Of a stretch of 39,827 bases of DNA, positions 80-37,400 are shown in pieces. Under the pieces are notes generated by a model. It was not told where the DNA came from, ran no database searches, and worked only from the letters and a program-made list of their open reading frames with translations. Source of the DNA: a virus; UHGV virus genome UHGV-2125590; one strand, given 5' to 3'. Positions within the stretch are counted from its first letter, which is position 1. Each line of letters begins with the position of its first letter. The position numbers and the translations under genes are program-made.

Positions 80-192
80 ATGTATTCATTTCTATTCACT
101 CTACACCATATTTTTCGTCGGTACAGGTGACGGTATTACCTTAAAGGTATACTCTCATACCGTCATGAAAATGGTTTCTATACGGGTGAATT

Positions 193-5388: not shown

Positions 5389-5465
5389 TTACCGTTGAGG
5401 TAATAATTATGCTTATTTGGTTTGGTGTCAATAGATATGAGTTAAAAAAATTACCCGTAAGGTAA
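5389..5465. promoter_or_regulatory. two copies of the 15-bp palindrome TTACC-N5-GGTAA in the leftward-operon promoter region (OL-like)
   Basis: Perfect sites at 5389-5403 and 5451-5465 between the repressor gene end and the leftward operon. Confidence 0.5.
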
Positions 5466-5522: not shown

Positions 5523-6107
5523 TTATTGTTTGCTTTTTTCGTTCTGGTTGATGACAAATTCAATGTAACTTTCGATCTTTGCTTTCTCGGTTTCGGGTAA
5601 CAATGCGTAGCGTGAGCGGTCATAGTTGATAGTCGCAGGGTCGTGCGGGTGAATCAGTAGTTCATATCCGTGACGCCCGAATGCGGATGCAACATTCTCC
5701 AGGGTGGAAATGGAAACGCTGACCTCATTGTTTAACAGGCGGCTGATTGTCACCTGGGCGACGCCGGATGCGCGGTGAAGTTTTCCCTGTGTTGAAAGGT
5801 CGCGGCTTTCGCTCATCCAGCGTTCCAGGTTGTGAGCCGCCAGCTGACCTATATCGCTCGGGCCGACAGGCTGAAAACCCTCCTGAGAAAGCGAACGATC
5901 AATATCAAGCCAGTTACGGGGTTTATTGGCGGCAGCTTCAATTTTTCGTGCAACCTGGTCGCCGATAACCTTCTTGCCAAGAGCCCAGCGGTTTACCAGA
6001 TTTGCCTGAGTTCCAAGTTTTTCTGCCATCCGCGTCTGAACACCATTGAATTCACGGTCGATCAAGTCGTTGAGATTTTGCCTGCGGACGTCCTGGATAC
6101 TTTTCAT
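5523..6107 (-). CDS. CI-like prophage repressor with two HTH regions and no S24 peptidase domain
   Basis: 194 aa; N-terminal HTH (QTRMAEKLGTQANLVNRW) and second XRE-like HTH (ASGVAQVTISRLLNNE); divergent from Cro-like gene; weak RBS, consistent with a PRM-like leaderless arrangement. Confidence 0.65.
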   Translation of the reverse strand: MKSIQDVRRQNLNDLIDREFNGVQTRMAEKLGTQANLVNRWALGKKVIGDQVARKIEAAANKPRNWLDIDRSLSQEGFQPVGPSDIGQLAAHNLERWMSESRDLSTQGKLHRASGVAQVTISRLLNNEVSVSISTLENVASAFGRHGYELLIHPHDPATINYDRSRYALLPETEKAKIESYIEFVINQNEKSKQ

Positions 6108-6162
6108 TTTCTGGAAAATCGCCTCATATATGAATCAGTAGATGATTCAATTTAAAGCAATA

Positions 6163-6225
6163 TTACCCAACAGGTAAATGCACCTCATAGGTAACTATCC
6201 TTGATTTTTGTTACCTTATGGGTGA
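6163..6225. promoter_or_regulatory. tripartite operator-like cluster (OR-like) between the divergent repressor and Cro-like genes
   Basis: Perfect TTACC-CAACA-GGTAA at 6163-6177; imperfect copies at 6180-6194 (GCACC...GGTAA) and 6211-6225 (TTACC...GGTGA). Confidence 0.55.
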
Positions 6226-6261: not shown

Positions 6262-6492
6262 ATGAGCGATAACGGACATTTCGATTTCAAAAAGCACTGG
6301 CTTGCACTTACTCCGGATGAGCGTGAAGCCTTCGCACAGGAAGCCGGAACGACGAGTCACTATATCCAGACTCACTTAACAGGCAAGCGCAAAATGCCAG
6401 GTAAAGTATTGATGAATGGTCTTTTTAAAGCCTGTAAAACAAGACAATGGCTGCGCTCAAAAGCAGAACTGGCATACTTCTTCTACTCATGA
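6262..6492 (+). CDS. Cro/YdaS-like small HTH regulator
   Basis: 76 aa, divergent from the repressor; AFAQEAGTTSHYIQ HTH-like segment. Confidence 0.6.
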   Translation: MSDNGHFDFKKHWLALTPDEREAFAQEAGTTSHYIQTHLTGKRKMPGKVLMNGLFKACKTRQWLRSKAELAYFFYS

Positions 6493-6547: not shown

Positions 6548-6562
6548 GTACCTCAAAGGTAA
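6548..6562. promoter_or_regulatory. imperfect palindrome copy (GTACC-TCAAA-GGTAA)
   Basis: One mismatch in left arm; between Cro-like gene and next gene. Confidence 0.35.
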
Positions 6563-8449: not shown

Positions 8450-8526
8450 TTACCTGATGGGTAATAAAATATTCTAAAATCTATTGATTTTGTGTCTTAT
8501 GTGGTTTTTAATTACCTCAGAGGTAA
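8450..8526. promoter_or_regulatory. two perfect TTACC-N5-GGTAA palindromes upstream of the DUF1064 gene
   Basis: Sites at 8450-8464 and 8512-8526; the second ends 3 nt before ATG 8530; TATGTGGTT motif at 8498-8506 between them. Confidence 0.5.
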
Positions 8527-11669: not shown

Positions 11670-11684
11670 TTACCACAACGGTAA
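11670..11684. promoter_or_regulatory. perfect TTACC-N5-GGTAA palindrome upstream of terS
   Basis: ATTACC-ACAAC-GGTAAC; imperfect second copy at 11686-11700. Confidence 0.5.
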
Positions 11685-11701
11685 CTATTACCACGGTGGT
11701 T

Positions 11702-12298
11702 ATGATGCCTGCTGAACCTAAAACCTATAAACGCAAATCAACGCAATTTAAGCCGCTCACAGCAATGCAGGAGGCTTATTGCCAGTCATACATCAAAACG
11801 CCTGAAAACCAGACTCAGGCAGCGATTAACGCAGGATTCTCCCCAAATACAGCGGCAGTTAAAGCCAGTGTCATGATGCGCGATGAACGCATTCAAAAAC
11901 GGATTGCCGAGCTGATGGAGGAGCGCAACAAACGAATGCGCGTCAGTGCTGATTACGTTCTCATGCGCCTGGTGGAGATCGATCAGATGGACGTGATCGA
12001 CATCCTCAACGACGATGGGAGCCTTAAACCAATCCGTGAGTGGCCGAAAATCTGGCGCACTACGCTTAGTGGCTTTGATCTGTCATCGACCATCATGAAC
12101 ATGAACGAGGATTCGATAGAGACAATCCTCAAAAAAATTAAATGGCCTGACAAGGTGAAGAACCTTGAGCTGATTGGTAAGCATGTTGATGTCAACGCGT
12201 TCAAAGAACGTCTGGATGTTAATGTGAATGTGACAATTGCTGATCGCATAGCAGCAGCCAGGAAGCGACTCAAAGAACGTCAGGATGGTAATCAGTGA
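11702..12298 (+). CDS. terS: terminase small subunit
   Basis: Immediately upstream of and overlapping TerL; start moved to ATG 11702 because the ORF-track N-terminal extension contains the palindromic motif and low-complexity sequence. Confidence 0.6.
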   Translation: MMPAEPKTYKRKSTQFKPLTAMQEAYCQSYIKTPENQTQAAINAGFSPNTAAVKASVMMRDERIQKRIAELMEERNKRMRVSADYVLMRLVEIDQMDVIDILNDDGSLKPIREWPKIWRTTLSGFDLSSTIMNMNEDSIETILKKIKWPDKVKNLELIGKHVDVNAFKERLDVNVNVTIADRIAAARKRLKERQDGNQ

Positions 12299-14433: not shown

Positions 14434-14510
14434 TGGCGTGGCATGCAGGATTCGAACCTGCGACCAACCGCTTAGAAGGCGGTTGCTCTGTCCAACTGAG
14501 CTAATGCCAC
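14434..14510 (-). tRNA. tRNA-Arg (anticodon UCU)
   Basis: 77-nt cloverleaf derived by hand: acceptor GTGGCAT/ATGCCAC, D-arm GCTC/GAGC, anticodon stem ACCGC/GCGGT with loop CT-TCT-AA, T-arm GCAGG-TTCGAAT-CCTGC, encoded CCA. Confidence 0.85.
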
Positions 14511-14832: not shown

Positions 14833-14847
14833 TTACCTGAAAGGTAA
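14833..14847. promoter_or_regulatory. perfect TTACC-N5-GGTAA palindrome upstream of the portal operon
   Basis: TTACC-TGAAA-GGTAAT; TATGTGGTT at 14891-14899 downstream. Confidence 0.5.
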
Positions 14848-19329: not shown

Positions 19330-19659
19330 ATGTCAGGTGAGAAACCAAGATACCGCGTTCTGCGCCTCTCTCATATCCATAACACTCTGTGGCCGGAGGG
19401 GGCAGAAATCGAATACGAAGGTGAGCCTGGTAGCGCACTGGAACCTGTTAACGATGCAGCCAGACAGGCAAAAGTTGCAGGAAAGGTGTCAATGGCAGCA
19501 ACCAGCACCAAAATCATCAACGATGTGTCAGATGATGGTGAACTGGATAAGCTCCGTGAAGAGTACGAATTGCTCTTTAACGAGAAGCCACACCATAACG
19601 CTAAAGCCGAAACGCTCCGCGAGAAGATCGCAGATAAGCGTAAAGAACTAGGCGTGTAA
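19330..19659 (+). CDS. hypothetical protein
   Basis: ATG 19330 with AAGGTGA RBS. Confidence 0.45.
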   Translation: MSGEKPRYRVLRLSHIHNTLWPEGAEIEYEGEPGSALEPVNDAARQAKVAGKVSMAATSTKIINDVSDDGELDKLREEYELLFNEKPHHNAKAETLREKIADKRKELGV

Positions 19660-19677
19660 GCCTCGCGAATCCGACAA

Positions 19678-19698
19678 GGGGCTTCGGCCCCTTTATTG
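19678..19698 (+). terminator. rho-independent terminator after the capsid cluster
   Basis: AGGGGC-TTCG-GCCCCT followed by TTATT. Confidence 0.55.
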
Positions 19699-19709
19699 CA
19701 GGAGTGTAT

Positions 19710-20033
19710 ATGGAACTCGTAAACCTCAAAACCGGCACTGACAGCTACCAGGATGAGAGCGGAGAAACCAGAACTCGCGATGAATACCCGTGGGGGCTGT
19801 GCATCACTCTTAATAACGACACATTGAATAAGCTGAAGGCGCAACCTCAGGGCGTCGGAACAGAAGTGATGATAACTGCAAAAGCTGTTATTCGAGGCCT
19901 GTCTGCCAGAGAAACTGACGATGGTGTTAATCGCAGCGCCGATCTGCAGATCACTGATATGGCGATCGCTCCTGTTTCCGGGGATGTAGAAAAATCAGCG
20001 GCTGAAACCCTGTACGGCAATGGGGGTGAGTAA
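19710..20033 (+). CDS. hypothetical virion protein
   Basis: ATG 19710 with GGAG RBS. Confidence 0.45.
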   Translation: MELVNLKTGTDSYQDESGETRTRDEYPWGLCITLNNDTLNKLKAQPQGVGTEVMITAKAVIRGLSARETDDGVNRSADLQITDMAIAPVSGDVEKSAAETLYGNGGE

Positions 20034-20638
20034 TGGCCTCTGTAGTAGAGATCTGCAATCGTGCGCTGTCCAATATTGGCAATAGCCGCAGCATTAACAG
20101 CCTGACGGAAGCCAGCAAGGAAGCGGGGGAATGTTCGCTGCACTTTGAGGCCTGCCGTGATGCTGTGCTTTCTGATTTTGACTGGAACTTTGCTACCAAA
20201 CGCGTGGCGCTTGCAGATACGAGCAATCCACCGCCTGACTGGGAATATGCGTATCAGTACCCGTCCGATTGTCTGCGCATTACTGAAATTATGCTTCCTG
20301 GTGTACGCAATCCAACAGCAGCAATGCGCGTTCAGTACGAAGTTGGTGCAGACACCAACGGAACAGGAAAGTTGATCTACACAGACCAGCCGCAGGCATG
20401 GCTCAAGTATGTCTCTCGCGTTTCAGATGTGAACATGTTTGATGCCATTTTTATGGAGGCGTTGGCCTGGCGTCTTGCGGCAGCTATTAACATGGCGCTG
20501 ACTGGGAATGAAGACCTCGGTACGTTTGCCCTCAATATGTACAATCGCGTGATTCTTAGTGCTGGCTCGCATAGCCAGAATGAATCACAGGAACCACAGC
20601 CACCGGTTGATGAGTTTACCATTGCGAGGTTGTCCTGA
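20033..20638 (+). CDS. T7 gp11-like head-tail adaptor (tail tubular protein A)
   Basis: 201 aa; N-terminus CNRALSNIGNS resembles T7 gp11 ILASIGEPP; position before nozzle gene. Confidence 0.5.
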   Translation: MASVVEICNRALSNIGNSRSINSLTEASKEAGECSLHFEACRDAVLSDFDWNFATKRVALADTSNPPPDWEYAYQYPSDCLRITEIMLPGVRNPTAAMRVQYEVGADTNGTGKLIYTDQPQAWLKYVSRVSDVNMFDAIFMEALAWRLAAAINMALTGNEDLGTFALNMYNRVILSAGSHSQNESQEPQPPVDEFTIARLS

Positions 20639-31079: not shown

Positions 31080-31106
31080 AGGCCGCTTTCGCGGCCTTGT
31101 TCTTTT
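31080..31106 (+). terminator. rho-independent terminator ending the structural operon
   Basis: AGGCCGC-TTTC-GCGGCCT followed by TGTTCTTTT. Confidence 0.5.
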
Positions 31107-31266
31107 AACGAATGCCACCGCCGCCCGGGCGGGAATCCGCAGAACGCCCACCGCAGCGGGAGCCGTCAGCGGCAGTATCGCTGTCGTGCTGACAACGACC
31201 GGCAAAGGCCTGAGTTGAAGCTACCAGAGACAACAAAACGAACAGTGCAGCAAATGCTTTTTTCAT
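31105..31266 (-). CDS. small secreted peptide (signal peptide plus about 31-aa Cys-containing mature part)
   Basis: MKKAFAALFVLLSLVASTQAFA then GRCQHDSDTAADGSRCGGRSADSRPGGGGIR; ATG 31266; no lipobox. Confidence 0.35.
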   Translation of the reverse strand: MKKAFAALFVLLSLVASTQAFAGRCQHDSDTAADGSRCGGRSADSRPGGGGIR

Positions 31267-31336
31267 TGTGAAATTTCCATCTATAAGCCACCTCAATGTG
31301 GCGTCAATGAGTGTAGCACTGACTTTTGTTTCGTCC

Positions 31337-31360
31337 ACAAAAAAGCCCGCGCTGCGGGCT
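31337..31360 (-). terminator. terminator after the 210-aa moron gene
   Basis: GCCCGC-GCTG-CGGGC with T-run on the minus strand. Confidence 0.45.
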
Positions 31361-31364
31361 TCTA

Positions 31365-31997
31365 TTAATGCAGTTTATCTTTGCTTATAACCAGTAGTCT
31401 GTGGGTATGCACATCTTTATCACTGCCCCAACAGAAATCAGCCCACTGGCTATAGAAATCATCCCATGATGTCATGAAGCTAAGAGGTCTATCTTCTTCA
31501 GAGCCATCTGAAACGTATACATTATATCCCGGGGTGTTTATAGCCCAAGAAATCATTCTTTCCCAGAATCTTCTCCCATCGATTGTTTGTTGCTCATCAG
31601 ATACAACGATCGCATATTGCTCTAGGAAGAACTGAAAAAAAATCTGAGGCAAACCATGAACAGCACGGTCATGAATAACATTAGGCGTACGCCATACCAT
31701 GATCTGCGTACATGTTCTTTTGGCTTCGACGATATCTTCCCGAAAGATTAACTTAACCGCATACACCGTTTCTGGAGTATCGCTGGTAGTAATCATTCTG
31801 TAATGATCGCCATTACAAGATTTTACAAGGCGATAACCATAAGGTGTTGTGAATCCCGGAAGAACGAAATCAACCACACCTTTCGCTAAGTAGCTTTCGG
31901 TGTGACTAGTGTTCTTCTCAGACATGTTCAGTTTTCTATCGAAATCTGCTTCTGGGATAATGTATGGCATCGCTTTTCTTGTTGTATTTGTTCTCAT
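31365..31997 (-). CDS. hypothetical 210-aa moron protein
   Basis: ATG 31997 with GGGAGGA RBS; own promoter region carrying the palindromic motif and own terminator; no family recognised. Confidence 0.55.
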   Translation of the reverse strand: MRTNTTRKAMPYIIPEADFDRKLNMSEKNTSHTESYLAKGVVDFVLPGFTTPYGYRLVKSCNGDHYRMITTSDTPETVYAVKLIFREDIVEAKRTCTQIMVWRTPNVIHDRAVHGLPQIFFQFFLEQYAIVVSDEQQTIDGRRFWERMISWAINTPGYNVYVSDGSEEDRPLSFMTSWDDFYSQWADFCWGSDKDVHTHRLLVISKDKLH

Positions 31998-32056: not shown

Positions 32057-32071
32057 TTACCCTTGAGGTAA
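32057..32071. promoter_or_regulatory. perfect TTACC-N5-GGTAA palindrome upstream of the 210-aa moron gene
   Basis: TTACC-CTTGA-GGTAAT. Confidence 0.5.
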
Positions 32072-32141: not shown

Positions 32142-32834
32142 TCAGAAGAACCCTGCTTTGTCGTTGATGTACTCCGCGTGAGTCTGGATATCACGCAGGC
32201 ATTTGCTCACACCGACGATGTAGCAGAACATGGTGGTCAGCTCCGCTGCAGCGCCCGATACATCATGCCCGTCTTCCTGTAACTGGTTCAGCAAATTCAT
32301 CAGCAGTGAGTTCTCCGTCAGGCCGAGAACACCAGACGGCGAATGAATCAGGCTGCGGTAGCCGGGCTTCAGCGGGGCACTGTAGGTTTTGTTCTCTATC
32401 TTCATCGCCTGCATTACTGCTGACGCCGTGGCGTTGGCTACCTGGTCGGCAACCATCTTTATGCGTTCTTCCTGCGGGAGCGAGTTTTTAATGTAACTTC
32501 CTGTGCGGCGGATCTGAGGAAGAACCTCACCTGTAACCCATTCAAGAAATCTGAATGCTCTCGTTCCCTCTGTCATTGCCTCTTTGCAACGCAGAATAAG
32601 GATGTAGAGACCTGATTCTGAAACGATGGATAGTTCTTGTATTCCACCAGGGGTCTGTATTGAATACAGCCCCTTTTTGTTCCAGCCTTTTTTATCAAGT
32701 TTTCTCGCTTGTGTAACATCAATATTCAAAGCATTGCACACATCTTTGGTGACAAACCAAGGTTCTCCGTCAATCATGAACATACGGATCTGGCAGGATG
32801 ACTCAAAGGAAAAGATGGAAGGTTTGGTATTCAT
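32142..32834 (-). CDS. Bro-N domain protein (antirepressor-like)
   Basis: ATG 32834 (AGGTGA RBS); N-terminal IRMFMIDGEPWFVTKDVCNALNI...GLYILI...LPQIRRTG is the Bro-N signature. Confidence 0.7.
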   Translation of the reverse strand: MNTKPSIFSFESSCQIRMFMIDGEPWFVTKDVCNALNIDVTQARKLDKKGWNKKGLYSIQTPGGIQELSIVSESGLYILILRCKEAMTEGTRAFRFLEWVTGEVLPQIRRTGSYIKNSLPQEERIKMVADQVANATASAVMQAMKIENKTYSAPLKPGYRSLIHSPSGVLGLTENSLLMNLLNQLQEDGHDVSGAAAELTTMFCYIVGVSKCLRDIQTHAEYINDKAGFF

Positions 32835-33101
32835 GGCGATCACCTTTGTAGTTAGGTTAATCACCACCGCTGAGACCAATCAGATGGTGGTGAACTGTGC
32901 AGAGTTGGTCTTACCGGCTACAAAGGAACCCGGCGCACCTTTCGGTGCCCCCACACAGCCCACCATAGAATAGGTGCGCTTTACACATAAAAAAACCGCT
33001 TATGCGGCATATGTGCCTCTGTAGTAATCCGGGAGACCAATCCCGGCACTGGATTTTGCCAGTGCCCGATTACTATGGCACAAGAGGAGTGCGATGTAAA
33101 T

Positions 33102-33209
33102 TTACCTCAAAGGTAATGATAAACGCGAAGAAATATTAAAATCAACCGTATTTGGTTGATTGGGTTTAACGCTTGATCACCTGAAAGCAAGATATTACCT
33201 TTAAGGTAA
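33102..33209. promoter_or_regulatory. two perfect TTACC-N5-GGTAA palindromes in the divergent promoter region
   Basis: 33102-33116 and 33195-33209, between the Bro-N gene (minus) and the 242-aa gene (plus). Confidence 0.5.
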
Positions 33210-33229: not shown

Positions 33230-33958
33230 ATGGAAGTTTTCTGGATAGTTGTTGGTGTGGTTGCGGTGATTATTTACGTTATCAACCAGAACAAGACTAA
33301 GATCTCTGATCGTACGGTCGTTAATCATAACAAAACGATAAAGACCGAAGATGGGGAGATAACGATTAATCGTACACAGGTGATAGAACACACCTCTACT
33401 CAGTTTCAAAAAACTGGAGGTAATGCGCCTAATATTTCCGCACCTCCTGCTTATGATAGTGCGGTAATCCAGACATATTATAAACAGCAGGAGTTAGCAA
33501 AAGAGAGGCAACTGATTCAGCCAAAGCCGTTTACAGCTGAGCTTCCACCTGGAGTGTCAACGCGTCCGGCATATCATGGAAGATTCCCTGGTGGTGACAT
33601 ATCGTCTCAGTCATCTAAAAAAGCACCTCAGGCAGTATCAGAGCCAGCAAGAATACCTTCTGTATCGCCGCCAAAAGAAGAATCAGCTAACAGAGTTTCA
33701 AGTGGTAGCAAGCAGTGCTTGCGATGCAGAATAAACCTTCCATATGAAAAATTCAGGAAATCGTCAAAAAATCCAGATGGATTGACTAAGTGGTGTGCAA
33801 GGTGTCTCGATGGCCCAAAGAATACACGCCATATGAAGTGGTGCCCAATTTGTAATGTCCGCAGAAAACGAACCAGCTTTTACCCTAATAATCAAAATGC
33901 GGACGGCTTAATGGCATGGTGCAAAACGTGCTGGGATGAGCACAAAGCGAAACGATAG
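33230..33958 (+). CDS. membrane-anchored protein with tandem C-terminal zinc-ribbon-like repeats
   Basis: N-terminal TM helix FWIVVGVVAVIIYVI; two repeats of C-x2-C...DGL-x2-WC-x2-C; GAGGAAAA RBS. Confidence 0.55.
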   Translation: MEVFWIVVGVVAVIIYVINQNKTKISDRTVVNHNKTIKTEDGEITINRTQVIEHTSTQFQKTGGNAPNISAPPAYDSAVIQTYYKQQELAKERQLIQPKPFTAELPPGVSTRPAYHGRFPGGDISSQSSKKAPQAVSEPARIPSVSPPKEESANRVSSGSKQCLRCRINLPYEKFRKSSKNPDGLTKWCARCLDGPKNTRHMKWCPICNVRRKRTSFYPNNQNADGLMAWCKTCWDEHKAKR

Positions 33959-33981
33959 GCCGCTCTTGCGGCCTTTAAATT
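33958..33981. terminator. hairpin terminator between convergent moron genes
   Basis: GGCCGC-TCTT-GCGGCC followed by TTTAAATTT. Confidence 0.4.
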
Positions 33982-34238
33982 TACCGGGTTTGTTTTCGTA
34001 ATTGTTCGGCACAATAGTCGAGATGTGTTTGCAGATCCCGCATAGACATCTGTGAGCTGGTGACGTAGTTAATCAGTGCAGTCAGTTCGGCAAGTGGGCC
34101 ATCGACATTAAATCCATCCTTATCGAGATCCCGGAGTAATTTCATCAAGTGCGATCCCTCCACCAGTGACCTGACGCCTCCCGGCGTGTGAATCCTTTCG
34201 GTAAATCCGTCTTCCAGTGGATAGTGATACTGCTGCAT
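33981..34238 (-). CDS. small protein homologous to the C-terminal domain of the Bro-N protein
   Basis: 85 aa from ATG 34238 (GGAG RBS); aligns by eye to the last ~70 aa of the Bro-N protein (H.P.GV..L.E.S.LM.LL..L..DG..V.G..AELT...NYV......RD.QTH). Confidence 0.45.
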   Translation of the reverse strand: MQQYHYPLEDGFTERIHTPGGVRSLVEGSHLMKLLRDLDKDGFNVDGPLAELTALINYVTSSQMSMRDLQTHLDYCAEQLRKQTR

Positions 34239-34314
34239 CTTATCTTCTCCATGCAATAACTGTATATTTATACAGTAACAAATAATTTGTTTGCTATCCA
34301 GCACGTTTTGCAAA

Positions 34315-34329
34315 TTACCCGAAAGGTAA
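34315..34329. promoter_or_regulatory. perfect TTACC-N5-GGTAA palindrome between the small minus-strand gene and the tailspike gene
   Basis: ATTACC-CGAAA-GGTAAT; TATGTGGTT at 34361-34369. Confidence 0.5.
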
Positions 34330-34433
34330 TATCTATTCGTATTTACAGTCTTTCTATCCATATGTGGTTTTCCAGGTAATAGAATAACCAGATATGCGGC
34401 GCAACGGGTGCTGCGACTATCTGGAGATTTAAC

Positions 34434-37400
34434 ATGACGGTCTCAACCGAAGTTGACCACAACGAATACACCGGTAACGGCGTTACGACATCGTTTCCGT
34501 ATACTTTTCGAATTTTCAGAAAATCAGACCTGGTTGTTCAGGTGTCTGACCTGAACGGAAACGTAACAGAATTGGTTCTGGATACCGGTTATACGGTAAC
34601 TGGGGCGGGCACTTATAGTGGCGGTTCTGTGGTTCTTCCGTCTCCGCTTGCTACTGGATGGCGAATTACGATAGATCGTGTGCTTGATGTGGTGCAGGAG
34701 ACTGATCTTCGTAATCAGGGAAAATTTTTCCCCGAGGTGCATGAAGATGCCTTTGACTATCTGACGATGCTGATCCAGCAATGTTTTGGATGGTTCAGAC
34801 GTGCATTGATGAAACCATCTTTGCTTGCAAAATATTACGATGCAAAGCAAAACAAAATTTCTAACCTTGCAGATCCATCATTTGAGCAGGACGCTGTAAA
34901 TAATCGCTCAATGCGTAATTATGTCGATGCTGCAATCGCCGGGGTTGTTGGTGGTTTTGGTTGGTTTATTCAGTATGGTTCTGGGGCTGTGTACCGAACG
35001 TTCCAGGATAAAATGCGTGATGCTATTAGCCCCAAAGATTTTGGAGCTGTTGGTGATGGTATAAATGACGATTCCACTGCAATAAGCGCGTGCCTTGAAG
35101 CCTCATCTCCAGGTTATAAAATTGACGGATTAGGGCTTACTTTTAAAGTATCAACTCTTCCGGATGTCAGTCGATTTAAAAATGCTCGTTTTTTATTTGA
35201 GAGAATACCGGGCCAGCCTCTTTTTTATGCTTCTGAAGATTTTATCCAGGGAGAGTTATTTAAAATTACAGATACACCGTGGTACAACGCCTGGACGCAG
35301 GATAAAACGTTTGTATATGACAATGTCATCTATGCGCCTTTTATGGCTGGAGACCGCCATGGTGTAAATAACCTCCATGTTGCATGGGTTCGCTCAGGAG
35401 ATGACGGGAAGACCTGGACAACGCCGGAATGGCTTACAGATTTACATGAAAACTATCCCACAGTTAACTATCACTGCATGAGTATGGGGGTTGTCAGAAA
35501 TCGCCTTTTTGCTGTAATTGAGACGCGGACCGTGAGCGGAAATAAACTGCAGGTTGCAGAGTTGTGGGATCGCCCAATGAGTCGCAGCCTTCGCGTTTAT
35601 GGTGGTATAACGAAAGCAGCAAATCAGCAAGTCGCTTATATTCGCATTACTGATCACGGATTATTTGCTGGTGATTTTGTCAACTTCTCAAACTCTGGTG
35701 TTACAGGTGTTACCGGGAATATGACGGTGACTACTGTTATTGATAAAAATACTTTTACAGTTACGACGCAAAATACCCAGGATGTGGATCAGAATAACGA
35801 GGGTAGATACTGGAGTTTTGGTACATCATTTCACTCGTCACCATGGAGAAAAACCAGTCTTGGAACTATTCCTTCTTTTGTTGACGGAAGCACTCCTGTT
35901 ACTGAGATTCACAGTTTTGCGACGATTAGCGATAACAGTTTTGCTGTTGGCTACCATAATGGTGATATTGGTCCACGCGAGCTTGGGATACTCTATTTCT
36001 CTGATGCTTTCGGTTCTCCTGGTAGCTTTGTTCGCAGACGCATACCTGCAGAATATGAGGCGAATGCATCTGAGCCATGTGTAAAATATTATGATGGCAT
36101 TCTGTATCTGACGACCAGGGGGACATTAAGTACTCAACCCGGTAGTTCATTGCACAGAAGCTCTGATTTAGGTACATCATGGAATTCTCTTCGCTTCCCA
36201 AATAATGTTCATCACTCAAACCTTCCTTTTGCCAAAGTTGGCGATGAGCTGATTATTTTTGGCAGTGAGCGCGCATTTGGTGAGTGGGAAGGAGGAGAAC
36301 CTGATAACCGTTATGCAGGAAATTATCCAAGAACATTTATGACCAGAGTTAACGTCAATGAGTGGAGTCTGGATAATGTAGAGTGGGTTAATGTTACTGA
36401 TCAGATTTATCAGGGCGGAATAGTTAACTCTGCGGTTGGTGTTGGTTCAGTTTGTATCAAAGACAACTGGCTGTACTACATTTTCGGTGGGGAAGACTTT
36501 CTAAACCCATGGAGCATAGGGGATAACAACAGAAAATATCCTTATGTTCACGATGGTCACCCGGCTGATTTGTATTGTTTCAGGGTGAAAATTAAACAGG
36601 AAGAATTTGTTTCAAGGGATTTTGTCTACGGAGCCACTCCTAACAGAACGCTTCCTACTTTTATGTCGACGTCAGGCGTGAGGACGGTTCCTGTACCCGT
36701 TGATTTCACAGATGATGTTGCCGTCCAGTCACTGACTGTCCATGCAGGTACATCAGGACAAGTTCGCGCGGAAGTCAAACTTGAGGGTAATTACGCCATT
36801 ATTGCGAAGAAAGTACCGTCTGATGATGTTACCGCTCAGAGATTAATCGTTAGCGGAGGTGAAACAACGTCTTCAGCAGATGGTGCAATGATAACGTTGC
36901 ATGGTTCCGGAAGCAGTACTCCACGTCGCGCGGTATATAACGCACTCGAACATCTTTTTGAGAACGGAGATGTTAAACCTTATCTTGATAATGTAAATGC
37001 TCTTGGTGGTCCGGGAAACAGGTTCTCGACAGTTTATCTTGGCTCCAATCCTGTGGTTACCAGTGACGGAACATTAAAGACAGAGCCGGTCTCTCCTGAC
37101 GAAACATTGCTGGATGCCTGGGGTGACGTCAGGTATATCGCTTATAAATGGCTGAACGCTGTCGCTATAAAGGGGGAAGAAGGGGCGAGGATACATCATG
37201 GTGTAATCGCGCAGCAACTTCGTGATGTTCTTATTTCTCACGGACTCATGGAAGAAGAAAGCACAACATGCCGCTATGCCTTTCTTTGCTATGACGATTA
37301 TCCCGCAGTATATGATGACGTCATTACTGGCCAAAGGGAAATGCCGCTGACTGATAATGACGGGAGCATCATTGTTGATGAGGATGATAATCCAGTGATG

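Follow-up and report, generated by a model that had tools for sequence, protein, structure and literature searches.

The Rep/Ant system of phage SPC32H, the closest counterpart of the one considered here, was reportedly described in Kim & Ryu 2013 (J Virol) and Kim et al. 2016 (PNAS), with structures under PDB 5D4Z and 5D50. In PMC7380047, which cites Kim & Ryu 2013, cleavage of LexA is followed by production of Ant and inhibition of Rep; PMC9638917 describes the tetrameric SPC32H Rep as being split by a tetrameric Ant, and the three-domain layout of SPC32H-type Rep proteins is given in PMC9986798. RNA-based control is described for the isrK-orf45-anrP mechanism of Gifsy-1, in which IsrK activates translation (PMC4825925). 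For the E. coli group, the sole paper is that on vB_EcoP_ZX5, where the repressor and a Bro-N 'anti-repressor' were tested by overexpression; the term LexA has 0 occurrences in that paper, and only the Bro-N protein is discussed.

The window, i.e., the whole 39,827-nt stretch of DNA analyzed, is a phiV10/epsilon15-like (Uetakevirus) E. coli prophage of the temperate podovirus type. Its immunity region was 97-98% identical to that of phiV10, ZX5, and HEMP4 and was found in 561 of 5426 complete E. coli genomes (~10%). This copy of the prophage may be rearranged, and perhaps without phage production even with a working switch, because its similarity to phiV10-like prophages ends 32 nt short of the tailspike stop codon and the lysis cassette is absent from the window; the tailspike/neuO/intS junction at ~37524 may reflect an inversion involving two endosialidase prophages. 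The tailspike carried by these prophages here is a K1-capsule endosialidase. Based on the features listed in Table 1, the lysis-lysogeny switch is probably an SPC32H-type Rep/Ant antirepression system, with a Bro-N/Ant-like fusion protein as a second, RNA-controlled layer. Computation here covered sequence homology, the LexA box and how far it is conserved, the RNA genes and their covarying base-pairing, and where the operators lie; the literature on homologs provided (i) the uncleaved state of Rep; (ii) the binding of Ant to Rep; (iii) the activation of translation by IsrK; and (iv) the lowering of lysogeny by Bro-N overexpression.

Table 1. Positions in the window of the genes, operators, promoters, and RNA elements discussed in the text
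Feature	Position	Strand	Basis and remarks
Operator-like palindrome, 1 mismatch	136..150	.	Upstream of integrase gene; identical in phiV10 and SPC32H
OL, two operators	5389-5403 and 5451-5465 (region 5389..5465)	.	Motif scan; centers 62 bp apart
rep, 194-aa prophage repressor, predicted non-cleavable	5523..6107	-	ORF; HTH_3 only; homology to SPC32H Rep
OR, rep/cro-like gap	6163-6177 and 6211-6225 (second with 1 mismatch)	.	Motif scan, synteny
cro-like gene, 76 aa	6262..6492	+	Divergent from rep; phrog_35 'transcriptional repressor', E 5.6e-13; position as phiV10p41
Operator pair	8450-8464 and 8512-8526	.	Centers 62 bp apart; after replication genes, before DUF1064 operon
Operator upstream of portal/head operon	14833..14847	.	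Motif scan, synteny
Accessory gene	31365-31997	-	Next minus-strand gene after Bro-N stop codon
Operator	32057..32071	.	Motif scan; between Bro-N stop codon and gene 31365-31997
Bro-N/Ant-like fusion, 230 aa	32142..32834	-	Bro-N domain 16-106; Ant-like domain ~149-225
Bro-N mRNA leader	32835..32882	-	Holds C4 targets a2 and b2
Leader b2, CUACAAAGG	32843-32851	-	C4 target; overlaps Shine-Dalgarno AAGGUG
Leader a2, UUGGUCU	32873-32879	-	C4 target
C4 antisense RNA	32883..32970	-	Rfam RF01695, 78.6 bits vs gathering score 45
C4 a' element, AGACCAA	32905-32911	-	Complementarity
C4 b' loop, CCUUUGUAG	32918-32926	-	Complementarity
IsrK-family Hfq-binding sRNA	32989..33065	-	Rfam RF01394, 74.7 bits vs gathering score 50
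IsrK b1, CUACAGAGG	33016-33024	-	Copy of C4 target site
IsrK a1, UUGGUCU	33034-33040	-	Copy of C4 target site
P_isrK promoter and Rep operator	33072..33116	-	Promoter scan; operator motif
Operator at P_isrK	33102-33116	.	Motif scan; abuts -35 hexamer
Operator	33195..33209	.	Motif scan; just upstream of plus-strand gene 33230-33958
Accessory gene	33230-33958	+	Between ant and isrK-C4-Bro-N cassette
ant, 85-aa small antirepressor, SPC32H Ant ortholog	33981..34238	-	Homology and synteny
LexA box AACTGTATATTTATACAGTA	34258..34277	.	Overlaps inferred ant promoter -10
Inferred ant promoter -10, TACTGT	34272-34277	-	Cross-genus conservation
Inferred ant promoter -35, TGGATA	34295-34300	-	Cross-genus conservation
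Operator, ant-tailspike intergenic	34315..34329	.	~40 bp upstream of LexA box

The repressor had been read from the sequence alone as a 194-aa protein with two HTH regions and no autocleavage domain, and both points were borne out by the domain searches. Pfam HTH_3 was detected in two stretches of Rep (best at residues 106-147) in addition to an N-terminal YdaS/DUF739-like HTH at residues 20-61, whereas no match to Peptidase_S24 was obtained in Pfam even at E<=1, and no LexA/S24 match in NCBIfam at E<=0.1; the 194 residues contain neither an Ala-Gly nor a Cys-Gly dipeptide. The remainder of the span that the sequence-only reading had given to this locus, 6108-6225, is the noncoding rep-cro intergenic promoter/operator region. 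Rep was found to share 99.5% identity with the repressors of phiV10 and ZX5 and to match SPC32H Rep (PDB 5D50_A) over its full length (E 3.5e-42, query 1-190 onto chain 2-197), with its C-terminal half aligned to the dimerization and tetramerization domains; the note on the epsilon15 repressor in the GenBank record of that phage likewise gives an HHpred match to 5D50_A. By homology, Rep would thus have an N-terminal HTH domain for DNA binding, a middle HTH-like domain for dimerization, and a C-terminal domain for tetramerization and Ant binding. As identity to the characterized SPC32H Rep is only 43% (BLASTP, E 1e-53), the non-cleavage of Rep and its binding of Ant are homology transfers. Induction through an antirepressor, as proposed earlier, offers the best account, because the structure of SPC32H Rep, to which Rep is homologous over its full length, was determined together with that of its antirepressor. 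Direct inactivation of Rep by RecA or another protease through an undetected fold is extremely unlikely: the whole of Rep aligns to a solved DNA-binding, dimerization, and tetramerization structure, the Ala-Gly site is missing, and the literature on homologs credits Ant with induction, leaving in its favor the general possibility of an unseen fold and nothing from the tools.

Scanning for the operator motif TTACC-N5-GGTAA (full palindrome ATTACC-N5-GGTAAT) yielded 15 matches in the window compared with 0.68 expected, 13 of which were intergenic. The sites were syntenic in phiV10, SPC32H, and epsilon15, and an identical motif is labeled 'protein_bind repressor' in the epsilon15 GenBank record, including at the equivalents of the operators upstream of the portal/head operon (epsilon15 2931-2947) and between ant and the tailspike gene (19895-19911). 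The two OL operators were located downstream of the rep terminator, on both sides of the leftward early promoter. The operator pair before the DUF1064 operon had its syntenic counterpart in SPC32H at 35972/36034, likewise 62 bp apart. Given operators at OL and OR and ahead of the majority of the remaining transcription units, a Rep tetramer bound to these palindromes would keep the prophage silent.

The window encodes an ortholog of SPC32H Ant, matching the structure chain 5D50_E at E 1.4e-46 and 86.7% identical to the annotated SPC32H ant (tblastn); no Pfam or NCBIfam family was found for this protein. The gene is divergent from the tailspike gene and outside the immunity region, a placement shared with SPC32H. 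In front of it, and 1.4 kb from the Bro-N gene, is the LexA box AACTGTATATTTATACAGTA, which has 2 mismatches to the 20-mer LexA consensus; 100 shuffles gave 0 matches at this level. The box aligns with that of SPC32H, and the C-to-A change of SPC32N falls inside the same box. Together with the TGGATA hexamer at an invariable 17-bp spacing, it is kept in epsilon15, Tyrion, and Klebsiella BUCT711, so that a LexA box over the ant promoter is conserved across four host genera, including Salmonella, Enterobacter, and Klebsiella relatives. The ant promoter was not called by a generic sigma-70 scan, and its -35 and -10 hexamers are assigned from the cross-genus conservation only. The longer 126-aa ORF at 33981-34361 was rejected as ant on two grounds: homology begins at an internal Met, in agreement with the 86-aa length of SPC32H Ant, and the upstream extension would span the LexA box and the promoter. 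Of the records in the phage collection, 36 encode a Rep homolog and 35 an Ant homolog, and the two sets have a matching organism/host profile.

The SOS-linked antirepressor is most likely this 85-aa ant product rather than the Bro-N protein, since ant is the SPC32H Ant ortholog with a conserved LexA box at its promoter. The Bro-N protein had been put forward as the induction antirepressor; its antirepressor character gained support from an Ant-like C-terminal domain and from the reduced lysogeny upon overexpression of its ZX5 homolog, and the SOS link moved to ant. The observation that the Bro-N gene lacks an upstream LexA box held up, as the CTGT-N8-ACAG scan revealed no plausible box there. 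A 1-mismatch match at 32943-32958 was discarded, having a GC-rich spacer and lying inside the C4 RNA gene. It is very improbable that the Bro-N protein itself couples the prophage to SOS through non-LexA or cryptic control. Its Ant-like domain, and the promotion of lysis by the overexpressed ZX5 homolog with an identical C-terminal half, are compatible with such coupling; however, a LexA-boxed ant ortholog is found nearby, SPC32H and epsilon15 have Rep and Ant without the Bro-N cassette or IsrK/C4, the phiV10 gene is split (p23 and p22), and translation would be masked by C4.

The Bro-N gene was confirmed at its previously given position and with its Bro-N domain (PF02498, 51.4 bits vs a Pfam cutoff of 25.6), and its strand was found to be minus. 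The protein also matches phrog_130 and phrog_450. Its C-terminal portion was related to the Ant of the window (43% identity over 74 aa, E 1e-20) and to SPC32H Ant (5D50_E, E 9e-14); this Ant-like domain covers the whole length of Ant and has the 17 invariant columns common to the small Ants. Classification as a P22 Ant or KilAC-ANT antirepressor was rejected: P22_AR_N scored 17.7 bits, under its cutoff of 30.7, no ANT, KilAC, or P22_AR_C domain was detected in Pfam, and the C-terminus is SPC32H-Ant-like. A 245-aa version with a TTG start was also set aside, as the cluster of this protein is represented in the database by the 230-aa form and the Shine-Dalgarno sequence overlapped by the C4 target is that of the ATG at 32834. 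The fusion shares 81% identity with ZX5 ORF4 and does not differ from it at residues 107-230; the overexpression phenotype of ZX5 ORF4 was a fall in prophage count from 10^9 to 10^6 (~1000-fold) and a 75% decrease in rep mRNA (ZX5 paper). For a 76%-identical homolog, all three genomic contexts were phiV10-like with ant and the tailspike gene adjacent. These relationships make it plausible that the fusion is a second antirepressor, which presumably binds the Rep of the window.

A role for the Bro-N protein as a DNA-binding or host-directed accessory (moron) protein, with the Ant-like domain serving oligomerization only, is improbable. Bro-N proteins are functionally diverse and mostly untested, the ZX5 data come from overexpression alone, and the gene is in a variable accessory region; indeed, the isrK-C4-Bro-N cassette is itself accessory, since it is missing from SPC32H and epsilon15, though both have Rep and Ant. 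Counter to a moron function, the Ant-like domain retains full Ant length with its invariant columns, Ant-domain matches are confined to the 35 records with the same organism/host profile as the 36 Rep-encoding records, and the upstream RNA module is of the type that controls antirepressors in P1 and Gifsy-1.

Regulation of the Bro-N gene, previously described as unclear, can now be assigned to a Rep operator at its promoter, followed by the IsrK sRNA and by a C4 RNA covering the Shine-Dalgarno sequence. The IsrK and C4 genes are upstream of the Bro-N gene on the same strand, preceded by P_isrK (TTTACA, 17-bp spacer, CATAGT; 33100-33072); three further E. coli prophage loci, as well as ZX5, show this operator-promoter arrangement. 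IsrK has its own terminator. Two duplexes were predicted between C4 and the Bro-N leader: (i) a 9-nt b'/b2 duplex over the Shine-Dalgarno sequence; and (ii) a 7-nt a'/a2 duplex. Across three cassette variants, IsrK b1, C4 b', and leader b2 change in concert, and the specificity loops of IsrK and C4 differ from phage to phage. The small ORFs that cross C4 stop at ~32881 or before, 47 nt ahead of the Bro-N ATG (sequence read by eye), and the window has no counterpart of icd or orf45 as a coupling ORF running up to the start codon of the Bro-N gene.

A mainly anti-immunity or cross-talk function, in which the fusion acts in trans on the Reps of related resident or incoming Uetakevirus-type phages in the manner of P1/P7 Ant, P22 Ant, and Fels-1 FsoA, is somewhat unlikely as the principal role. 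The cassette architecture is that of P1 immI, and its a/b loops vary between variants, as for an immunity-specificity determinant; the central motif of the fusion, DGHDVSGAAAEL, is that of the Klebsiella-type small Ant, unlike the Ant of the window; there is precedent for antirepressors that act on repressors other than their own (PMC3121763); and the phiV10 gene is annotated as 'putative anti-immunity protein'. However, the overexpressed ZX5 protein hit the lysogeny and rep mRNA of its own phage, and the Rep operator at the promoter of the fusion ties it to the resident repressor. This function is compatible with, and not exclusive of, the two-layer Rep/Ant switch.

In the proposed two-layer switch, Rep would hold the prophage silent during lysogeny while host LexA occupies the near-consensus box over the -10 element of the ant promoter. 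Upon DNA damage, self-cleavage of LexA would allow transcription of ant, and Ant would bind the C-terminal domains of Rep and remove it, uncut, from the DNA. The Bro-N fusion would be transcribed from the promoter abutting the Rep operator, with most transcripts ending at the IsrK terminator; in the read-through RNA, C4 would pair with the leader and mask the Shine-Dalgarno sequence, and the copies of the target sites in IsrK could titrate C4, so that the fusion would be made only upon strong firing of P_isrK, e.g., when Rep starts to leave or a phage comes in. The fusion would then serve as a reinforcing or trans-acting antirepressor and not as an SOS sensor. We infer both the direction of the Rep effect on P_isrK and the order of these events. 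We tentatively suggest that the E. coli/Enterobacter/Klebsiella branch duplicated the Ant domain, giving two copies with different inputs and one non-cleavable Rep as the target; possibly, the free Ant came to stand behind LexA and the Bro-N-fused Ant behind a Rep-operated promoter and the IsrK/C4 switch. If true, the arrangement would amount either to a positive-feedback latch after which induction could not be reversed or to an anti-immunity weapon acting in trans on related prophages.

Each of the modules (Rep/Ant, LexA-gated ant, and IsrK/C4-controlled antirepressor) is already known, and current understanding is not overturned since every module has a characterized precedent. Their combination appears to be undescribed, as no description of a dual LexA-gated Ant and RNA-gated Bro-N/Ant arrangement was found in the searchable literature. 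Placing the DNA-damage link at a LexA-boxed gene for an unannotated 85-aa 'hypothetical protein', and not at the gene labeled as an anti-repressor, puts right the logic by which a prophage family in about a tenth of complete E. coli genomes is annotated. It also bears on the prediction of the antibiotics or stresses that mobilize these prophages and is relevant to the engineering of phiV10-type reporter phages. A LexA-gated Ant with an RNA-gated paralog would be a compact natural case of two antirepressors for one repressor, and the covarying IsrK/C4/leader triplets a ready-made set of orthogonal RNA switches.

Compared with the S24 repressors lambda CI, P22 C2, and LexA, Rep shares the placement between early operons, the divergent cro, and the Cro/C1-type N-terminal HTH, but is without the S24 domain, the Ala-Gly site, and the Ser-Lys dyad. 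The systems of 186 Tum, N15 AntC, and Gifsy GfoA/GfhA/GftA resemble the window in their logic of a non-cleavable repressor and an antirepressor outside the immunity region under direct LexA control (PMC3121763); however, no sequence relationship to the window Ant was detected, the repressor families differ, and the Gifsy complexes are dimer-based whereas those of the window type would pair a Rep tetramer with an Ant tetramer. With P1/P7 immI (c4 antisense RNA-icd-ant) and Gifsy-1 isrK-orf45-anrP, the window has in common the predicted pairing of C4 a'/b' to a2/b2 over the ribosome-binding site of a downstream antirepressor gene (a candidate one in the window), an upstream a1/b1 copy (here within IsrK), a repressor operator at the promoter, and transcription past the IsrK terminator. 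The coupling ORF (icd, orf45) of these systems is absent from the window, its RNA-controlled protein has an SPC32H-Ant-like C-terminus instead of P1 Ant or a KilAC/ANT domain, and its repressor is unrelated to P1 C1 and Gifsy GfoR. ZX5 and phiV10 share with the window the near-identical repressor, ant, the LexA box, the isrK-C4-Bro-N cassette, and the operators. They differ in that (i) the ZX5 cassette directly follows ant, where the window has the plus-strand gene 33230-33958 in between; (ii) the ZX5 Bro-N domain is ~60% diverged and its C4/IsrK specificity loops are different; and (iii) the phiV10 Bro-N gene is not intact. In the ZX5 genome record, the small ant gene is a hypothetical protein. 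SPC32H, a Salmonella phage as opposed to the E. coli host of the window, has the more distant Rep and neither the Bro-N/Ant-like fusion nor IsrK/C4; it belongs to the same phage genus and shares a full-length Rep homolog, an Ant ~87% identical, an ant gene divergent from the tailspike gene with a LexA box at its promoter, and the same operator palindrome at syntenic sites.

The rep locus does not encode an S24 repressor, as both the peptidase domain and a cleavage site are missing. Pfam matches of the 194-aa repressor Rep were to HTH families only, namely HTH_3 in two stretches (best at residues 106-147), HTH_26, and an N-terminal HTH of the YdaS/DUF739 type at residues 20-61. No Peptidase_S24 match was detected by Pfam even at E ≤ 1, no LexA-family match was present in NCBIfam, and neither an Ala-Gly nor a Cys-Gly dipeptide occurs in the 194 residues. 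The sequence-only reading had described a repressor of this length without an S24 domain and had called for the S24/LexA HMM search performed here, which bears it out. The span of 5523-6225 that it assigned to the repressor was found to hold a genuine ORF together with the promoter and operator DNA upstream of it. Its two HTH-like segments were likewise recovered by Pfam; however, the second is most likely a dimerisation domain and not a second DNA reader, because of the domains described for the homologous repressor of Salmonella phage SPC32H. Rep was found to align across its full length with the SPC32H protein (PDB 5D50 chain A, E 3.5e-42, 43% identity), of which fragment 92-198 corresponds to PDB 5D4Z. 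SPC32H Rep is described as a tetramer on DNA that is split into dimers by tetrameric Ant, the antirepressor (PMC9638917), and a review citing Kim & Ryu 2013 gives the sequence as LexA cleavage, antirepressor synthesis, and inhibition of the repressor by protein-protein contact (PMC7380047).

An Ant of 85 aa is encoded in the window, matching SPC32H Ant (5D50 chain E) at E 1.4e-46 and the annotated SPC32H ant gene at 86.7% identity by tblastn. It sits where SPC32H has its ant, with the last tail gene on one side and the divergently oriented tailspike gene on the other. Positioned 20 nt upstream of its start codon is a LexA box, AACTGTATATTTATACAGTA, the only sequence in the window with 3 or fewer mismatches to the 20-mer LexA consensus (0 in 100 shuffles). 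This box was (i) kept in an alignment of the window, phiV10, SPC32H, and the SPC32H variant SPC32N, the last having A in place of the C that SPC32H carries in the distal CAG; (ii) found with the same spacing to ant in epsilon15 and in Enterobacter phage Tyrion; and (iii) slightly degenerate in Klebsiella phage BUCT711. The SPC32H Rep is reportedly not cleaved, and the point mutation in the LexA box is said to render SPC32N constitutively lytic. The hexamer TGGATA (TGGAAA in Klebsiella) is conserved exactly 17 bp upstream of the TACTGT half of the box, across a spacer of variable sequence. A generic promoter scan gave no call for ant; we infer that these hexamers are the -35 and -10 elements of its promoter (P_ant), and LexA would therefore occlude the -10. 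Homologs of Rep and Ant were found in 36 and 35 phage-collection records, respectively, with an identical host profile, a match that supports the two as a functional pair. Overall, we consider the core model of a Rep/Ant/LexA switch to be likely.

The palindrome TTACC-N5-GGTAA was detected at 15 sites in the window (at most 1 mismatch) vs 0.68 expected, with 13 of the 15 being intergenic when their coordinates were placed by hand on the ORF map. In two operator pairs, the centres are separated by exactly 62 bp, which is also the spacing seen in SPC32H. The motif occurs at syntenic positions in phiV10, SPC32H, and epsilon15, where the central 5 bp and flanks differ, and exactly these sites (ATTACC-N5-GGTAAT) are labeled 'protein_bind: repressor' in the epsilon15 GenBank record. 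Rep is predicted from these sites to directly control almost every transcription unit, the Bro-N cassette included, and the placement of operators before nearly every operon, together with the 62-bp pairs, suggests looping by the Rep tetramer.

Coordinates of the repressor, operator, antirepressor, and tailspike-end features
Feature	Position	Strand	Details
operator	136-150		before int
operators (two)			downstream of rep terminator, around leftward early promoter
rep	5523-6107	-	ORF, 194 aa
rep/cro-like promoter and operator region	6108-6225		shared with divergent cro-like gene
operators (two)			between rep and cro
cro-like gene	6262-6492		divergent from rep
operator	6548-6562		after cro terminator
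operator pair	8450-8526		before DUF1064 operon, 62 bp apart
operator copies (two)	11670-11702		5' end of small-terminase ORF, 18 bp apart
operator	14833-14847		before portal operon
operator	32057-32071		after Bro-N gene
Bro-N gene	32142-32834	-	Pfam Bro-N 51.4 bits, cutoff 25.6
C4 antisense RNA	32970-32883	-	Rfam 78.6 bits, gathering score 45
IsrK-family Hfq-binding sRNA	33065-32989	-	own terminator; Rfam 74.7 bits, gathering score 50
operator			abutting -35 of P_isrK
operator	33195-33209		just upstream of plus-strand gene 33230-33958
ant	33981-34238	-	ORF, 85 aa
LexA box	34258-34277		upstream of ant
operator			ant-tailspike spacer
TCAAGAC x 10.3	37713-37784		perfect tandem repeat upstream of acyltransferase ORF
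hexapeptide acyltransferase fragment	38095-38430		ORF
second integrase, P4-type	38670-39827	-	

Control of the Bro-N gene, which the sequence-only reading had left as unclear, is post-transcriptional via the RNAs C4 and IsrK and not via LexA, and is probably also transcriptional through the prophage repressor at the operator beside P_isrK, the promoter of the cassette. No credible LexA box was found upstream of this gene, in agreement with that reading; the sole CTGT-N8-ACAG match with 1 mismatch was rejected for its GC-rich spacer and its location inside an RNA gene. Both RNA genes lie directly upstream of the Bro-N gene on the same strand, and a promoter-like TTTACA-17-CATAGT ends 7 nt ahead of the first IsrK base, with its operator arrangement kept in ZX5 and the other loci compared. 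The leader segment CUACAAAGG, which overlaps the Shine-Dalgarno sequence AAGGUG 8-16 nt before the Bro-N ATG, has its complement in the hairpin loop of C4, CCUUUGUAG. A single-stranded C4 element, AGACCAA, is likewise the complement of UUGGUCU, a motif shared by the leader and a hairpin loop of IsrK. A wobble-compatible copy of the Shine-Dalgarno-region target, CUACAGAGG, is present in IsrK as well. When the cassettes of the window, ZX5/phiV10, and three E. coli loci were compared, three variants were found, in each of which the pairing elements IsrK b1, C4 b', and leader b2 change together: the target is CUACA(A/G)AGG with the above loop in the window, CUAAAAGG with loop CCUUUUAG in ZX5/phiV10, and CUAAGUGG with loop CCACUUAG in the E. 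coli loci. The a elements pair as UUGGUCU/AGACCAA or UUGGCGU/ACGCCAA. The -35 region of P_isrK also differs in phiV10. Neither RNA is present in SPC32H or epsilon15, while phiV10 has both.

The Bro-N gene noted from sequence was confirmed, and its 230-aa product was found to be a fusion, with a Bro-N domain at residues 16-106 and a match to SPC32H Ant at residues 149-225 (5D50_E, E 9e-14). It shares 43% identity across 74 aa with the window's own Ant (E 1e-20), and an alignment of five small Ants with five Bro-N fusions gave 17 invariant columns along the whole Ant length. Related proteins are common across Enterobacteriaceae (968 at E ≤ 1e-5), and the 120 best hits listed all cover at least 92% of the query; a 76%-identical member was viewed in three genomic contexts, each a phiV10-like prophage with an 85-aa ant immediately upstream and a tailspike gene adjoining. 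The repressor of phage ZX5 is 99.5% identical to Rep, and its Bro-N protein 'ORF4' is 81% identical to the fusion overall and identical at residues 107-230. Overexpression of ORF4 brought lysogens down from 10^9 to 10^6 and cut rep mRNA levels by 75%, and overexpression of the ZX5 repressor abolished free phage (PMC9782041). LexA is never mentioned in that paper, and the small ant gene is only a 'hypothetical protein' in the ZX5 genome record. The Ant-like domain and the ORF4 phenotype make the Bro-N protein of the earlier proposal a plausible second antirepressor; the SOS link most likely runs through the LexA-boxed ant. A primary role for the fusion is opposed by SPC32H and epsilon15, where a Bro-N gene is missing although Rep, Ant, and the LexA box are all present, and by phiV10, whose Bro-N gene is broken into two ORFs. 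This phiV10 gene (19551-20230) is split into p23 and the 29-aa p22, and its Ant-like domain is probably not made. From analogy, a single overexpression study, and the homology of its domains, we put the chance that the fusion acts on the window's Rep at about even. Between the E. coli and Salmonella phages, identity is far higher for Ant (87%) than for the Rep that it targets (43%), and the central motif of the fusion, DGHDVSGAAAEL, is identical to that of the Klebsiella-type small Ant and not to that of the window's own Ant; together these hint at domain capture and possible cross-reactivity among heteroimmune relatives.

Accessory genes flank the cassette. The 242-aa protein of 33230-33958(+) (phrog_6762) has an N-terminal hydrophobic segment, repeated CxxC zinc-ribbon motifs, and weak Stc1 and endonuclease VII-like matches; its gene is an insertion that separates ant from the isrK-C4-Bro-N cassette and is missing in ZX5. 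Two genes downstream of Bro-N (31105-31997, minus strand), in a region variable among relatives, encode a 210-aa protein (phrog_1349) and a small ORF with a signal-peptide-like segment (MKKAFAALFVLLSLVASTQAFAG...).

The immunity region is 97-98% identical to those of phiV10, vB_EcoP_ZX5, HEMP4, and TL-2011b (all genus Uetakevirus, epsilon15 group). Of 5426 complete E. coli genomes, 561 contain it. Gene order is as in phiV10: int, a leftward early operon with RecT and YqaJ exonuclease, rep, cro, DnaT/P-like replication genes, terminase, head and tail genes, and tailspike. The phiV10 record labels its homologs of rep and the Bro-N gene 'putative transcriptional repressor, two helix-turn-helix motifs' and 'putative anti-immunity protein, Bro N-terminal domain'. 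A tRNA-Arg(UCU) lies between the terminase and portal operons (14434-14510, minus strand), a position at which SPC32H has an annotated tRNA-Arg and phiV10 gives an Rfam tRNA match. The match to the near-identical phiV10-like prophage of Es_ST80 ends at 37524, 32 nt before the tailspike stop codon, and the holin/endolysin/Rz cassette expected after the tailspike is absent from the window. The remaining sequence, 37524-39827, comprises a tailspike 3' end, the acyltransferase, and the second integrase. The trio of tailspike, acyltransferase, and intS is annotated in 148 E. coli genomes, and we take this end to be the tailspike-neuO-int end of CUS-3-type K1 prophages. The TCAAGAC tract resembles the phase-variable AAGACTC repeat of the K1 capsule O-acetyltransferase gene neuO, and about 10 copies would put a neuO-like gene out of frame. 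These features suggest recombination of two endosialidase tailspike genes or a chimeric join; as such genes may have recombined, the prophage may therefore be rearranged even if its switch is intact.

In the proposed mechanism, Rep tetramers would occupy the operators in the lysogen, with P_ant blocked by LexA and any Bro-N mRNA masked by C4. DNA damage would trigger LexA self-cleavage, Ant would be made and bind the C-terminal domains of Rep, and Rep would dissociate uncut; for these events, homology is strong to a system that has been solved structurally and tested by genetics. Firing of the lytic promoters and of P_isrK would follow, IsrK would outnumber C4, and the translated Bro-N/Ant fusion may remove remaining Rep or the Rep of related prophages; the order of these seven steps is likewise a proposal. 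That a LexA-gated free Ant and an IsrK/C4-gated Bro-N-fused paralog serve as dual inputs on one repressor is a tentative reading, which we rate somewhat below even.

When compared with known systems, the window's locus agrees with SPC32H Rep/Ant in every feature that can be tested by sequence. The P1/P7 immI region follows an a1/b1 - a'/b' - a2/b2 logic, and the same logic is found in the window's cassette. This immI logic is summarised in PMC7313666. The cassette has the RNA features of the P1 immI/Gifsy-1 isrK family and is a homolog of Gifsy-1 isrK-orf45-anrP, but is without a coupling ORF extending to the start codon of the antirepressor. In Gifsy-1, transcription continues past the terminator of IsrK to give a long mRNA that is translationally silent, and IsrK in trans raises antirepressor translation about 140-fold (PMC4825925). 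The Bro-N protein belongs to neither the P22-Ant nor the KilAC/ANT type. Phage 186 Tum, N15 AntC, and Gifsy GfoA/GftA are similar in logic (PMC3121763), with no sequence relationship detectable. The combination of a repressor that is not cleaved with an antirepressor under LexA control is already established for this genus, sequenced phages have copies nearly identical to that of the window, and the RNA elements all belong to curated Rfam families with a studied precedent; what seems to be undescribed is the coexistence, around one repressor, of a free LexA-gated Ant and a Bro-N-fused Ant paralog gated by IsrK/C4.
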